Part shown: positions 30,959 through 36,029 of the stretch, piece after piece
Numbering within the stretch: position 1 is the first letter of the stretch
Layout of the letters: the number at the start of each line of letters is the position of its first letter
Source of the DNA: Escherichia coli
GTDB taxonomy: Bacteria > Pseudomonadota > Gammaproteobacteria > Enterobacterales > Enterobacteriaceae
Reading direction: 5' to 3' (one strand)
Assembly: GCF_050920415.1 (NCBI RefSeq)
Contig: NZ_CP169309.1
DNA length: 64,000 nucleotides
The notes under the pieces: generated by a model
The model's input: the letters and a program-made list of their open reading frames with translations, nothing else
Database searches by the model: none
What the model was told of the DNA's origin: nothing
Position numbers and translations under genes: made by a program

Positions 30959-32230
30959 TTACTCAATCAGCTTCAACAGTGGCGACAAGCATAACAAAAT
31001 GCCGTACAGCAGAATCATCCAGGCTTTAAACCCGCGAAGTTTTTCCAGTTGTGAGACTTTATAGATCAGGAAAAATGGAATGAGGCACGACACAATGCCA
31101 TATAACGGGCTTCCCAACTGAAAGAACACCAGCACCGATACACGAAACGAAACCCAAATCGTCAACGTAATGACGATAAAAGCGCAGATCGCCAGAGTCA
31201 GCATGCGTGAGTTAATTTTCTGGGTATCAATAATTCGGCTTAACAGATTGAGAATAATGCCTTTAATGGCCTCGTGGAAACCGAGATAAATGCCAAAGAA
31301 TGCGGTCAGTACGGCAAAGATATTCAGCACCGTAGAGGTGATATGAATGATATGCCCAGGGATCACCTGCGCGGCCAGTGCCAGTGCCGAGATATTTTGT
31401 TCAAAGGCAGAAACGGCTTCTTCGTGGCTAATTGAGAAGGTAAACGAAAAGGCAAAAAACAGGATCACCGCGATGAGCGTGACATAACTAATTCGGTGGG
31501 TACGCAGCGCGAGCCGGGTTGCCAGTACTTTATCCGCTTCCCGTTTACGATAGGCAATATTCATTGGGTTAAGTACCTGAATAAATACCGCAGAAAAGAA
31601 GCAAAAGGGAATGGTAAGCAGGACATCGCGGAAAAAGACGGAGGCTTGCGGGAAGGCGGTTATATTGGCGAAATTCCAGTGCGGGATCATCGCAAAACCG
31701 AACACGACGATAATCCCTACTTTGACCACCACCATTGGCCCGGAAATCTTAAACAGTAATCGTTCACCACCAGACGCAATTGCCACCAGTACGGCGAAAA
31801 TGGCGACTTTATAAAGTAGAGATTGTGAAAGATCGGCATCGGTTAAACCGAAGGTTTTCAGGTACGAGGCGCTGTCGAAAACCACGGAGAGAGAGTAGAT
31901 AAAAATCCCGTGGATAATCATCAAAAAGTAGATAACCCCGAGGAAAATTCCCCAGTTCTTCCCCAGGTAATGACTGATAATATCGGTGTAGTCATTACAG
32001 GAATCGCTTTCAGAAAGGGTTTTTAAATAAATGTCCTGCACTACCCAGGTGGCAGGATAAGCAATGATCGCTGCGGTAATAAATACCCAAATTCCCTTCA
32101 AGCCAATTTGTACTGGCATCAGCACGGTTCCGGCACCAATCGCCATGCCTATGCATAATAAAACCCAGCCGAAGTCGTAGCGTGTAAACGGCATTTTCTG
32201 ATCGTGTTTCGGTAGTGTGTTGTGCTGCAT
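30959..32230 (-). CDS. yhjV: putative amino-acid transporter YhjV (HAAAP/serine-transporter-like)
   Basis: ORF 30959..32293; start chosen at [15 protein letters not shown] (423 aa); polytopic membrane protein. Confidence 0.8.
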
Positions 32231-32385: not shown

Positions 32386-32585
32386 ATTTCACTACCAGTC
32401 TGGAGTCAGCCCGGATATGAACTGCAACTATTGCAAATAAAGAAATTAAGCTGGAAGGCATCACGCAATGAGGAAGATTGCCGGGTGCTGACGGTAAAAA
32501 GCAATCGTAAAATCAGCGGCAAGCCGGAAAGGTTCCGGTGAGGCGCAATGTTGCGGGGGCTTAATCCCTGGTGGCATTGGTTGCT

Positions 32586-32654
32586 GGAGAGAGAAAACCC
32601 CCGCACGTTGCAGATATTCACCTGACAACATCACGGGGGCTAATCTTGAACCTA
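32586..32654 (-). ncRNA. rdlD: Rdl antisense RNA, copy 1 (approximate ends)
   Basis: Minus-strand reading gives a GC-stem hairpin (CCCCCG...CGGGGG) followed by UUUUCUCUC; -10-like TATTCT upstream on minus strand; ends inferred from the Rdl family. Confidence 0.45.
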
Positions 32655-32705
32655 GACCACTCAAGAATAGCCGCGAAACGTTGTCATTACAACACAGGCG
32701 GCTAT

Positions 32706-32813
32706 ATGACGCTCGCAGAACTGGGCATGGCCTTCTGGCATGATTTAGCGGCTCCGGTCATTGCTGGCATTCTTGCCAGTCTGATCGTGAACTGGCTGAA
32801 CAAGCGGAAGTAA
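32706..32813 (+). CDS. ldrD: Ldr type I toxin peptide, copy 1 (35 aa)
   Basis: MTLAELGMAFWHDLAAPVIAGILASLIVNWLNKRK; Ldr family small hydrophobic toxin. Confidence 0.85.
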   Translation: MTLAELGMAFWHDLAAPVIAGILASLIVNWLNKRK

Positions 32814-33071
32814 CGTGTCAGACGGGCGTCAGGCTGCCGTAATGGCAATTTGCGCCCGGACCAGGCCGCAGGGATAAAACTCTGCGGCCTTTTTCGTAAG
32901 AAAAATGCAACGGTTGCAAGCGGATAATATTCTGCGGAATGCGCAGCACAGAGTGAAGAAGTGATGGATTCTGGAACAGAAAAACAGTCGTAGAATCAGC
33001 GGCAAGCCGGAAGGGTTCCGGTGAGGCGCAATGTTGCGGGGGCTTTATCCCTGGTGGCATTGGTTGCTGGA

Positions 33072-33140
33072 GAGAGAAAACCCCCGCACGTTGCAGGTAT
33101 GCACCTGACAACATCACGGGGGCCATTCTTGCATCCAAAC
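33072..33140 (-). ncRNA. rdlD: Rdl antisense RNA, copy 2 (approximate ends)
   Basis: Same structure as copy 1; minus-strand promoter-like TTGTAA, 17-bp spacer, TATTCT. Confidence 0.45.
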
Positions 33141-33188
33141 AATACAAGAATAGCCGCGAAACGTTGTCATTACAACAGAGGCGGCTAT

Positions 33189-33296
33189 ATGACGCTCGCA
33201 GAACTGGGCATGGCCTTCTGGCATGATTTAGCGGCTCCGGTCATTGCTGGCATTCTTGCCAGTCTGATCGTGAACTGGCTGAACAAGCGGAAGTAA
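33189..33296 (+). CDS. ldrD: Ldr type I toxin peptide, copy 2 (35 aa)
   Basis: MTLAELGMAFWHDLAAPVIAGILASLIVNWLNKRK. Confidence 0.85.
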   Translation: MTLAELGMAFWHDLAAPVIAGILASLIVNWLNKRK

Positions 33297-33555
33297 CGTG
33301 TCAGACGGGCGTCAGGCTGCCGTAATGGCAATTTGCGCCCGGACCAGGCCGCAGGGATAAAACTCTGCGGCCTTTTTCGTAAGAAAAATGCAACGGTTGC
33401 AAGCGGATAATATTCTGCGGAATGCGCAGCACAGAGTGAAGAAGTGATGGATTTCGACGAACAAAAATGGCCGTAGAATCAGCGGCAAGCCGGAAGGGTT
33501 CCGGTGAGGCGCAATGTTGCGGGGGGCTTTATCCCTGGTGGCATTGGTTGCTGGA

Positions 33556-33624
33556 GAGAGAAAACCCCCGCACGTTGCAGGTATGCACCTGACAACACCA
33601 CGGGGGCCATTCTTGCATCTAGAC
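33556..33624 (-). ncRNA. rdlD: Rdl antisense RNA, copy 3 (approximate ends)
   Basis: Same structure as copies 1-2. Confidence 0.45.
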
Positions 33625-33672
33625 CATTCAAGAATAGCCGCGAAACGTTGTCATTACAACAGAGGCGGCTAT

Positions 33673-33780
33673 ATGACGCTCGCAGAGCTGGGCATGGCCT
33701 TCTGGCATGATTTAGCGGCTCCGGTCATTGCTGGCATTCTTGCCAGCATGATCGTGAACTGGCTGAACAAGCGGAAGTAA
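33673..33780 (+). CDS. ldrD: Ldr type I toxin peptide, copy 3 (35 aa)
   Basis: MTLAELGMAFWHDLAAPVIAGILASMIVNWLNKRK (L26M relative to copies 1-2). Confidence 0.85.
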   Translation: MTLAELGMAFWHDLAAPVIAGILASMIVNWLNKRK

Positions 33781-34038
33781 CGTGTCAGACGGGCGTCAGG
33801 CTGCCGTAATGGCAATTTGCGCCCGGATCAGGCCGCAGGGATAAAACTCTGCGGCCTTTTTCGTAAGAAAAATGCAACGGTTGCAAGCGGATAATATTCT
33901 GCGGAATGCGCAGCACAGAGTGAAGAAGTGACGGATTCCGGAACAGAAAAACAGTCGTAGAATTAGCGGCAAGCCGGAAGGGTTCCGGTGAGGCGCAATG
34001 TTGCGGGGGCTTTATCCCTGGTGGCATTGGTTGCTGGA

Positions 34039-34107
34039 GAGAGAAAACCCCCGCACGTTGCAGGTATGCACCTGACAACATCACGGGGGCTAATCTTGAA
34101 CCCAAAC
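34039..34107 (-). ncRNA. rdlD: Rdl antisense RNA, copy 4 (approximate ends)
   Basis: Same structure as copies 1-3. Confidence 0.45.
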
Positions 34108-34155
34108 AACTCAAGAATAGCCGCGAAACGTTGTCATTACAACAGAGGCGGCTAT

Positions 34156-34263
34156 ATGACGCTCGCAGAACTGGGCATGGCCTTCTGGCATGATTTAGCG
34201 GCTCCGGTCATTGCTGGCATTCTTGCCAGTCTGATCGTGAACTCGCTGAATAAGTGGAAGTAA
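34156..34263 (+). CDS. ldrD: Ldr type I toxin peptide, copy 4 (35 aa, variant C-terminus)
   Basis: MTLAELGMAFWHDLAAPVIAGILASLIVNSLNKWK (W30S and R34W relative to copies 1-2). Confidence 0.8.
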   Translation: MTLAELGMAFWHDLAAPVIAGILASLIVNSLNKWK

Positions 34264-34349
34264 CGTGTCATGCGGGCGTCAGGCTGCCGTAATGGCAATT
34301 TGCGCCCGGATCAGGCCGCAGGGGTGAAACTCTGCGGCCTTTTTCGTTC

Positions 34350-36029
34350 TTATTGCGGGTAAGGCACCCAGTCGCCGCCGTTCAGGCGAACGTACGGTTT
34401 ATCCTGGTATTGAATAACTACTGCATTTGAGTTCTCGGAGACCGGTGCTGTTTGTGGCAACCCACTGGTGAGTTTTTTCCAGTCAACATTGTCTTCGGTG
34501 AAAATCTTACCATCAAGAACGCGAACCACCAGATCGGAGATAGCCAGGAAGCTGCTCGGTTGGTTGATGACAATCGGTGCCCCCTGATGTGGTGCCTTCA
34601 TGCCGAAGAATTTCACCCCAACGGGGACGTCTGTGATAGACGGGCTAGGGATATCACGTAGGCCAGATACCTGCATTCTGTCGCCCTTCAGCGCGCCACC
34701 GTGTTCCGGCACCACTACCACCATCACTTTACGACCCGATTTCTCCAGTTCAGTAAAGAAGGCGTCCAGCTCATCAAAGAATTTCTGCGCTCGCGCTTTG
34801 TAATCCGCTGTTTTGCTGACGCCCGGATAATGGTTGCCGTCATGCAGTGGAAGCGTGTTGTAGAACGTGGCACTACGGCTGTTTTTATCTTTTTCGGTAA
34901 CGTCCAGCCAGCGGTTAAGCACGGCGGTATCGTCATAAACCGGCGAACCATCAAAGCCCAACAAAATAACCGGCAGATTTGTTTGATCCATCAATTCGGT
35001 CTGCATGCCGCCATTTTCGCGAACTTCTTTCAAAAAACCGCCGAACTGGCCGTTATGTCCCATCATCAGGTGCTGGGTAAAGCCCAGTTTCGACAGGTTA
35101 TCAAACAGATAGCAGTCGTTATTTGCCGGTTGATACAGATTAGTGTGCGAAGTCTGCCCGCAGCTGGCGCGCAGTAAACGGATCGCCGCCGGGCCACTGT
35201 AGGAGGTGGCGGAGTTAAAGTTCTTGAACTCAATATCGAAATGCGACCACAGCGGATGCGACATCAACCCGGCGGCTTCAATATCCGACCAGGAAAGCGA
35301 ACAGATATTAATCACCAGTAGTTCAAATGGCTGAGCATCAGCGGGCAGCGAAGACGGGAAGGTCGATTTACGTTTCGCCTCCGCGTTATAGAAATTATTC
35401 AGCCAGGCGTTAAGGTTCGCCGTTGTTGGCGGTGCAGTTTGTGCGGGCATATCACCCACTACCGGTGCGCCACCCGTCGCCGCAACGGTTGCCGCTGCGT
35501 TACCACCCGTCGTTGTTACAGTGGTCGTCGGTTGACCGGCAGGCCACAAGGAGAAACTTGGTCCCGCCAGGGTAAGTACGTTCAGCCATAGCAGAATGGC
35601 AACCACAAAAACGGTAATGCGAATCCATTGTGACAGGAATAACCAGGCCACTAATAAAACAAAAATGGCCCCAATCATCTGCCAGTTAATAAAGCGTGTG
35701 ACAAGGTCGATTAAATAATCGGTACTGAACCCCGCCACCTGCGAACCCTGGCTCATTATGCTTTCCGGGCCAGGCAACCAGGTGTCATGCCAGAACAAAG
35801 CAAAGCCGATCGGCAGGGCAATCCAGTGGCGTAAGCGATGCAGGCTGTAGCGCGGAATGGGCATCAGCAGAAACGCGGCAAACACCAGATTGAGGAGCGG
35901 ATGGAAGTTAAGATATCCCGCCCACAACAGGCCGAACTTAACCAGAAAATAGAAGTTCCAGCCGGAAAGGCCGCGCCAGTATTGCCAGAGGGAAGAAGGC
36001 ATGGCGGTATTTTGCGTAAATTGAGTCAT
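34350..36029 (-). CDS. bcsG: cellulose biosynthesis protein BcsG (phosphoethanolamine transferase)
   Basis: 559-aa ORF, N-terminal TM segments plus periplasmic alkaline-phosphatase-like domain; head of the bcsEFG operon. Confidence 0.9.

Follow-up and report, generated by a model that had tools for sequence, protein, structure and literature searches.

The 64,000-nucleotide stretch of DNA that we analysed (hereafter the window) comes from Escherichia coli and carries, between yhjV and bcsG, a tandem array of four LDR-D units. Each unit holds a 35-codon Ldr open reading frame (ORF) and, some 50 nt upstream of this ORF and on the other strand, a full-length rdlD (Rfam RF01813), and the four aligned units have a mean column identity of 97%. 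The array and its flanking genes are laid out as follows, with the names of the flanking genes taken from the annotation of homologous RefSeq loci and the end coordinate of yhjV derived from the RefSeq gene length of 1272 nt:

30959-32230, minus strand: yhjV, putative transporter, 444-codon ORF, on the copy 1 side
32497-34347, plus strand: tandem array of four LDR-D units (TRF: period 483 bp, 3.8 copies, 95% matches)
32706-32813, plus strand: ldr copy 1, canonical tail ...NWLNKRK (Pfam PF13940 and ORF call), with rdlD at 32592-32657 on the minus strand
33189-33296, plus strand: ldr copy 2, canonical tail ...NWLNKRK (Pfam PF13940 and ORF call), with rdlD at 33075-33140 on the minus strand
33673-33780, plus strand: ldr copy 3, Met at residue 26, tail ...NWLNKRK (Pfam PF13940 and ORF call), with rdlD at 33559-33624 on the minus strand
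34156-34263, plus strand: ldr copy 4, 35 codons and stop, tail ...IVNSLNKWK (Pfam PF13940, 77.3 bits; identical to RefSeq WP_000170737.1)
34350-36029, minus strand: bcsG, cellulose phosphoethanolamine transferase, 559-codon ORF, on the copy 4 side

All four peptides match the Pfam model PF13940 (Ldr_toxin; cutoff 27 bits) over residues 1-35 of 35, with 90.7, 90.7, 93.2 and 77.3 bits for copies 1 to 4, and the corresponding rdlD matches to RF01813 score 85.5, 82.9, 81.8 and 90.4 bits, copy 4 being the best of the four. A search of the NCBIfam models with the Ldr peptides gave no match. The solved structure closest to the copy 4 peptide is that of LdrD (PDB 5LBJ, E = 1.5e-15), which is the NMR structure of the K-12 protein. 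Copy 4 shows the hallmarks of the Ldr family, namely an end-to-end profile match and a cis-encoded antisense rdlD, as well as those of an LDR-D locus, since it lies in a direct repeat unit of about 0.5 kb between yhjV and bcsG and has its own terminator. The system is that of ldrD/rdlD, a toxin-antitoxin system of type I, present here as the multi-copy version often found in E. coli; it is already known, reportedly from the work of Kawano et al. in 2002. When overexpressed, LdrD or LdrA from K-12 causes death or arrest of E. coli cells, an effect that is counteracted by the cognate Rdl RNA (PMC4147584, PMC8309996). Among the 11 E. coli loci that we inspected between yhjV and bcsG, the number of copies ranges from 1 (K-12) to 5 (MFDS1022581). 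In E. coli MS 21-1 (NZ_CP146670.1), which has a five-copy array, both flanking genes are annotated as pseudogenes, yhjV because of a truncation and bcsG because of a stop codon within the gene.

Copies 1 and 2 encode one identical peptide, MTLAELGMAFWHDLAAPVIAGILASLIVNWLNKRK, which ends in ...ASLIVNWLNKRK, and copy 3 encodes the same peptide except for Met26, ending in ...ASMIVNWLNKRK. Translation of copy 4 from the ATG at 34156 to the TAA at 34263 yields MTLAELGMAFWHDLAAPVIAGILASLIVNSLNKWK, which ends in ...ASLIVNSLNKWK. The initial annotation of this region had contrasted the tail NWLNKRK of copies 1 to 3 with NSLNKWK in copy 4, and our ORF translations agree; alignment and codons likewise confirm its description of a conserved Trp that is lost and a basic Arg replaced by Trp, which by our count are residues 30 and 34. 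The two codons concerned are:

34243-34245, plus strand: codon 30, TCG (Ser) replacing TGG (Trp), W30S, caused by 34244 G>C (alignment column 299)
34255-34257, plus strand: codon 34, TGG (Trp) replacing CGG (Arg), R34W, caused by 34255 C>T (alignment column 310)

A third change within the ORF of copy 4, 34251 C>T, is synonymous at N32. The L26M difference ascribed to copy 3 is also present by translation, although its polarity is arbitrary because Met26 is the state of both the K-12 reference LdrD and PDB 5LBJ.

There is practically no chance that sequencing or assembly errors produced the differences in copy 4, a concern that the initial annotation had itself raised. They are substitutions rather than homopolymer indels, two complete genomes of independent origin, from Korea and Tibet, contain DNA identical to copy 4 at 403 of 403 positions, and 82 contigs from several sources carry exactly this peptide. 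On these grounds, together with the allele counts given below, we rejected the error reading.

The frequency of the alleles was assessed in 5,426 complete E. coli genomes. A megablast search with the copy 4 unit as query detected LDR sequences in 5,425 of these, with 100% identity only in MFDS1022581 (five copies) and N96 (four copies); the window and N96 differ at 7 positions over about 5 kb. Alleles were counted with a 55-mer centred on the variable base, such that a genome with another base offers no 28-nt seed and gives no match, and the resulting counts for S30 and W34 are lower bounds. S30 (C at 34244) is present in at least 337 of the 5,426 genomes, at exactly one place per genome, while W34 (T at 34255) is present in at least 5. 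Two of the five W34 genomes have the copy 4 of the window (2 of the 337 S30 genomes in this set), and the other three have a single-copy, K-12-like ldrD with the tail ...NWLNKWK. When the peptides were looked up as exact sequences among about 15 billion proteins, the alleles were found on these numbers of contigs:

NSLNKRK: at least 1000 contigs
NSLNKWK (copy 4, RefSeq WP_000170737.1): 82 contigs
NWLNKWK, K-12 type: 32 contigs
NWLNKWK, L3 type: 3 contigs
GWLNKWK, in a cluster with E. ruysiae and unclassified Escherichia: 31 contigs
NWLNKQK (R34Q): 999 contigs

W30S is an established and common E. coli allele. R34W is rare and recurrent, occurring on at least four peptide backgrounds of which three have W30, and position 34 is naturally polymorphic for Arg, Gln and Trp. 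The copy 4 peptide is already catalogued in RefSeq as an Ldr family toxin, and a literature search that included the tail sequences brought up no paper in which the S30 or W34 alleles are discussed.

The status of Trp30 as a conserved residue is upheld by a wider survey of Ldr C-termini. A HMMER search of the whole library yielded 64 representatives at 50% identity, and the full-length ones were compared. Nearly all divergent representatives keep Trp30, both the LdrA-D-like ones and the more distant enterobacterial ones, in tails such as ...IVNWLRNRK, ...IVSWMDNRK, ...IVAWIKRKR and ...LGWWHRRK, with the exception of one lineage that has Arg (...IVSRMDNRK); at position 34, most have Arg. Fozo et al. 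(PMC2887945) and Weaver (PMC7472228) describe as the signature of the Fst/Ldr superfamily a transmembrane helix with a conserved Trp behind it and then a cluster of charged residues, and a 2021 review notes two conserved cationic residues in the C-terminus of LdrD (PMC8309996). Judged from these alignments, copy 4 departs from its family at the two best-conserved and most characteristic positions of the tail, and its Pfam score is 13.4 bits below those of copies 1 and 2. The place of the signature Trp is taken by Ser30, with a Trp reappearing at position 34 (i+4), and the tail keeps K33 and K35 but not R34, leaving the tail with two cations instead of three and the whole peptide with a net side-chain charge of 0 instead of +1. 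The PxxxG transmembrane motif is unchanged (P17-V-I-A-G21). As Fst-pAD1 also lacks the signature Trp, this residue is not an obligatory feature, and because copy 4 is two substitutions away from the canonical allele, its membership of the family by descent is unaffected.

The divergent copy occupies a particular place in the array. The nine S30 genomes that we inspected, and likewise the window, all have S30 in the copy next to bcsG, which is the last of 2 to 5 units. Moreover, seven of the eight differences private to copy 4 fall within the last 102 of 400 aligned columns, that is, at the 3' end (binomial P about 4e-4). Four of these differences, TG at 34271-34272 and G at 34324 and 34326, are found in the edge copy of all strains examined, including single-copy K-12, with GA and A..A at the same positions in internal copies. 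These shared bcsG-proximal markers lead us to regard the 3' end of the edge unit as an orthologous segment that is stable across strains and lacks the version of the internal copies. Only the edge copy would thus be divergent because its 3' segment is orthologous between strains and the internal units have their own shared 3' version. The common bcsG-proximal allele WP_000170736.1 (...IVNSLNKRK) is identical to copy 4 except at residue 34 and has both its array position and the linked synonymous N32 codon, AAT. We infer that a haplotype of S30 and synonymous N32 on the edge segment would explain the divergent last copy without special selection. Under this scheme, W30S and the linked N32 change would represent a polymorphism established on the edge copy, R34W would be a later and rare transition that arose on the S30 allele, and the last 100 or so nucleotides of the edge unit would have evolved as a stable, strain-orthologous segment while the internal units kept their shared 3' version.

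The regulatory parts of copy 4 are the following:

33998-34075, plus strand: candidate ldrX, a leader ORF of 25 codons within the ldr 5' UTR that rdlD overlaps and that encodes the same peptide as in K-12
34042-34107, minus strand: rdlD antisense antitoxin RNA (Rfam RF01813, 90.4 bits, model positions 1-66 of 66)
34147-34161, plus strand: Shine-Dalgarno (SD) and start region, predicted to pair with 34277-34289 just past the stop codon
34313-34345, plus strand: intrinsic terminator with an 11-bp stem and a T run, differing from that of the internal copies in the loop only

The rdlD of copy 4 has a terminator-like hairpin at 34064-34050, and ldrX itself is a hypothesis proposed by Gerdes and Wagner (PMC4147584). 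A 376-nt mRNA model (33970-34345) has a minimum free energy of -180.5 kcal/mol (z = -8.8 against dinucleotide shuffles) and is predicted to form one long hairpin, in which the 5' and 3' halves of the ORF pair with each other, as do the SD and start region and the sequence directly past the stop codon. Independent predictions give ldrA, ldrB and ldrC of K-12 this layout as well; the outer helix does not vary between LDR-A/B and LDR-D types, and the predicted inner helix joins codons 30-34 to codons 11-16. A consensus scan gave no sigma-70 site upstream of copy 4 and no strong -35 element in internal or edge units; a -10-like hexamer, TAGAAT, can be read by eye at 33958-33963, which we do not put forward as a promoter. 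Leader ORF, rdlD, SD and start region, terminator and mRNA fold, and hence the expression apparatus of copy 4, are intact, and since this holds for all regulatory parts, transcription and repression of copy 4 most likely proceed as for ldrD of K-12. In such a scheme, the structured mRNA of about 375 nt would sequester the SD and start codon by means of the region after the stop codon, and RdlD would pair with the 5' UTR across the leader ORF and thereby block translation.

The remaining units differ from one another in their own ways. Copy 3 (33514-33780) has a run of six G at about 33521-33526 where the other copies have five, which places the leader ATG in frame with ldr and creates an 88-codon fusion ORF of leader and toxin; copy 3 would behave differently if translation of the leader were coupled to that of the toxin. 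MFDS1022581 and N96 have the same G6 run in their equivalent copy, Z0117EC0005 has it in one of its copies, and one MFDS1022581 copy has G4 and an 87-codon fusion. The region of the RdlD 5' end, and with it the matching part of the ldr 5' UTR, is of two types, GCTAATCTTGAACC... in copies 1 and 4 and GCCATTCTTGCATC... in copies 2 and 3, so the array is a mosaic, and by sequence the antitoxin RNAs of the copies may differ in target preference. The variable regions lie at:

32641-32661: RdlD 5'-end variable region of copy 1
33124-33144: RdlD 5'-end variable region of copy 2
33608-33628: RdlD 5'-end variable region of copy 3
34091-34111: RdlD 5'-end variable region of copy 4

The -10-like hexamer that precedes the presumed start of ldr transcription (region 32505-32515 in the first unit) is TAAAAT in both copy 1 and K-12 and TAGAAT in copies 2-4, and further upstream the first unit is completely unlike the others; promoter strength may consequently differ with position in the array. 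The PxxxG motif is altered by P17S in copy 1 of N96 and by G21S in the last copy of LCP30S3_I5.

The core of the copy 4 peptide is the canonical one, comprising W11-H-D-L, P17xxxG21 and the hydrophobic stretch up to V28. Given an alignment of 20 family sequences, AlphaFold2 models the peptide as a single helix over residues 3-34 (pLDDT 88.6), in which positions 30 and 34 (i and i+4) lie about 40 degrees apart on the same face. According to this model, the double substitution in effect would shift the Trp one turn towards the C-terminus and drop one positive charge. Wimley-White interfacial sums for the tail are 1.22 kcal/mol for the canonical peptide, 3.20 for S30 and 0.54 for S30/W34; on this scale R34W restores the interfacial hydrophobicity lost with W30S, which faintly suggests compensation. 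A specific role of R34W as compensation for W30S is weakened by its presence on three W30 backgrounds as well. Because the hydrophobic core, P17xxxG21 and K33/K35 are unchanged, the copy 4 peptide would be expected to insert as a single helix with its N-terminus out and its C-terminus in, and it would do so without the interfacial signature Trp30 and with two tail cations rather than three.

How these changes bear on toxicity depends on the premise, made in the initial annotation, that the charged tail often determines toxicity or topology in small membrane toxins, and for toxicity this premise holds for some members and fails for others. Toxicity of Lpt requires its C-terminus (PMC6811638) and that of AapA1 its C-terminal cationic residues (PMC8309996). 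Conversely, truncated Fst is still toxic, Fst-pAD1 is toxic with a natural Val at the position of the Trp (PMC7472228), and LdrA with a C-terminal FLAG tag retains full toxicity (PMC12643268). Our literature search found no residue-level mutagenesis of LdrD, which according to the 2021 review remains to be done (PMC8309996). We consider the chance to be a little better than even that the toxicity of copy 4 would be quantitatively weakened or altered, yet not abolished. The counterexamples of Fst-pAD1 and LdrA-FLAG also favour a different reading, in which both substitutions are neutral and copy 4 is as toxic as canonical LdrD. This reading gains from the persistence of S30 as an intact ORF in hundreds of genomes and at least 1000 contigs, which is compatible with full function, and from the hydrophobicity that R34W would restore to the tail; in addition, natural R34Q and the occurrence of W34 on several backgrounds suggest that position 34 is tolerant. 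Against it stand the near-invariance of W30 over divergent Ldr lineages, which implies constraint, the essential C-terminus of Lpt and the essential C-terminal cationic residues of AapA1, and we regard neutrality as a serious possibility that is nevertheless rather improbable.

Other accounts appear much less probable. Copy 4 could be decaying under relaxed selection and be effectively non-toxic, as might be read from S30 edge copies elsewhere that have acquired A9S, V18I, V18I with G21S (which breaks PxxxG) or A24V, and from the five nonsynonymous changes to one synonymous change among the sampled S30 alleles. However, nonsynonymous changes are in similar excess among W30 copies (L26M, R34Q, V28M, P17S, F3L), such that the ratio is not specific to S30, and the sample is tiny and phylogenetically non-independent; we therefore discarded relaxed selection on S30 copies as unsupported. 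With no frameshift, stop or start loss in any of the nine S30 copies inspected, and with leader ORF, rdlD and terminator of copy 4 intact, decay is very unlikely. It is still more doubtful that the changes were shaped mainly by mRNA structure and not by peptide function, in such a way that pairing between the two ORF halves let only structure-compatible substitutions persist. The exceptional stability of the predicted mRNA and the like architecture predicted for ldrA, ldrB and ldrC are consistent with such an effect, as are the folding energies: 34251 and 34255 C>T turn predicted G-C pairs into G.U wobbles, and in silico a gain of about 2.2 kcal/mol with 34244 G>C is offset by a loss of about 2.4 kcal/mol with 34255 C>T, which brings the double mutant (-180.5 kcal/mol) close to the ancestral sequence (-180.9 kcal/mol). 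Yet some 2 kcal/mol is within the prediction error for a fold of -180 kcal/mol, 34244 is unpaired in the consensus structure, and covariation in the inner helix is weak (compensatory changes in 2 of 72 pairs, with a positive covariation term). We set RNA-level compensation aside, as it is suggested by the folding energies and finds no support in covariation, and consider a dominant role of mRNA structure highly unlikely. YajC neutralises both LdrA and LdrD, and LdrA's transmembrane and cytoplasmic domains are needed (PMC12643268). An S30 or S30/W34 edge allele might conceivably be functionally specialised, either by escaping YajC or by co-assembling with and modulating the canonical copies, which we think very unlikely; if co-assembly took place, the array would constitute a graded, multi-allele set of toxins. 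Overall, we favour as the probable explanation that copy 4 is the edge unit of the array carrying a natural allele, with intact regulation and a likely weakened or altered toxicity.

The closest known counterpart of copy 4 is LdrD/RdlD of K-12 (b4453/b4454), which lies at the same yhjV-bcsG locus and has 35 residues, 31 of them identical. Both share the leader peptide, the rdlD family, the terminator and the edge-specific 3' markers, whereas K-12 has one unit where the window has four, and the peptides differ by F3L, M26L, W30S and R34W. Fst-pAD1 of Enterococcus faecalis, the prototype of the superfamily, is like copy 4 a membrane toxin without the signature Trp, but it is a distant relative from a Gram-positive host, plasmid-borne, with an acidic tail and an antisense RNA that overlaps the 3' end of the gene (PMC7472228). 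The logic proposed for copy 4 also resembles that of hok/sok from plasmid R1, which likewise combines a long structured mRNA, a sequestered SD, a leader ORF (mok, to which ldrX would correspond) and an antisense RNA directed at the leader region (PMC4147584), although the hok toxin family is unrelated to Ldr and ldrX coupling is a proposed model only.

Finally, the natural alleles form a four-way series, W30/R34, S30/R34, S30/W34 and W30/W34; beyond this series, the divergence of copy 4 is allelic variation of an ordinary kind, in a gene family that is already annotated. S30, found in about 6% of the complete E. coli genomes, removes the signature Trp of the superfamily, and S30/W34 additionally removes a conserved cation of the tail. 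This allele series could therefore reveal the roles of the interfacial Trp and of the cationic tail in LdrD.
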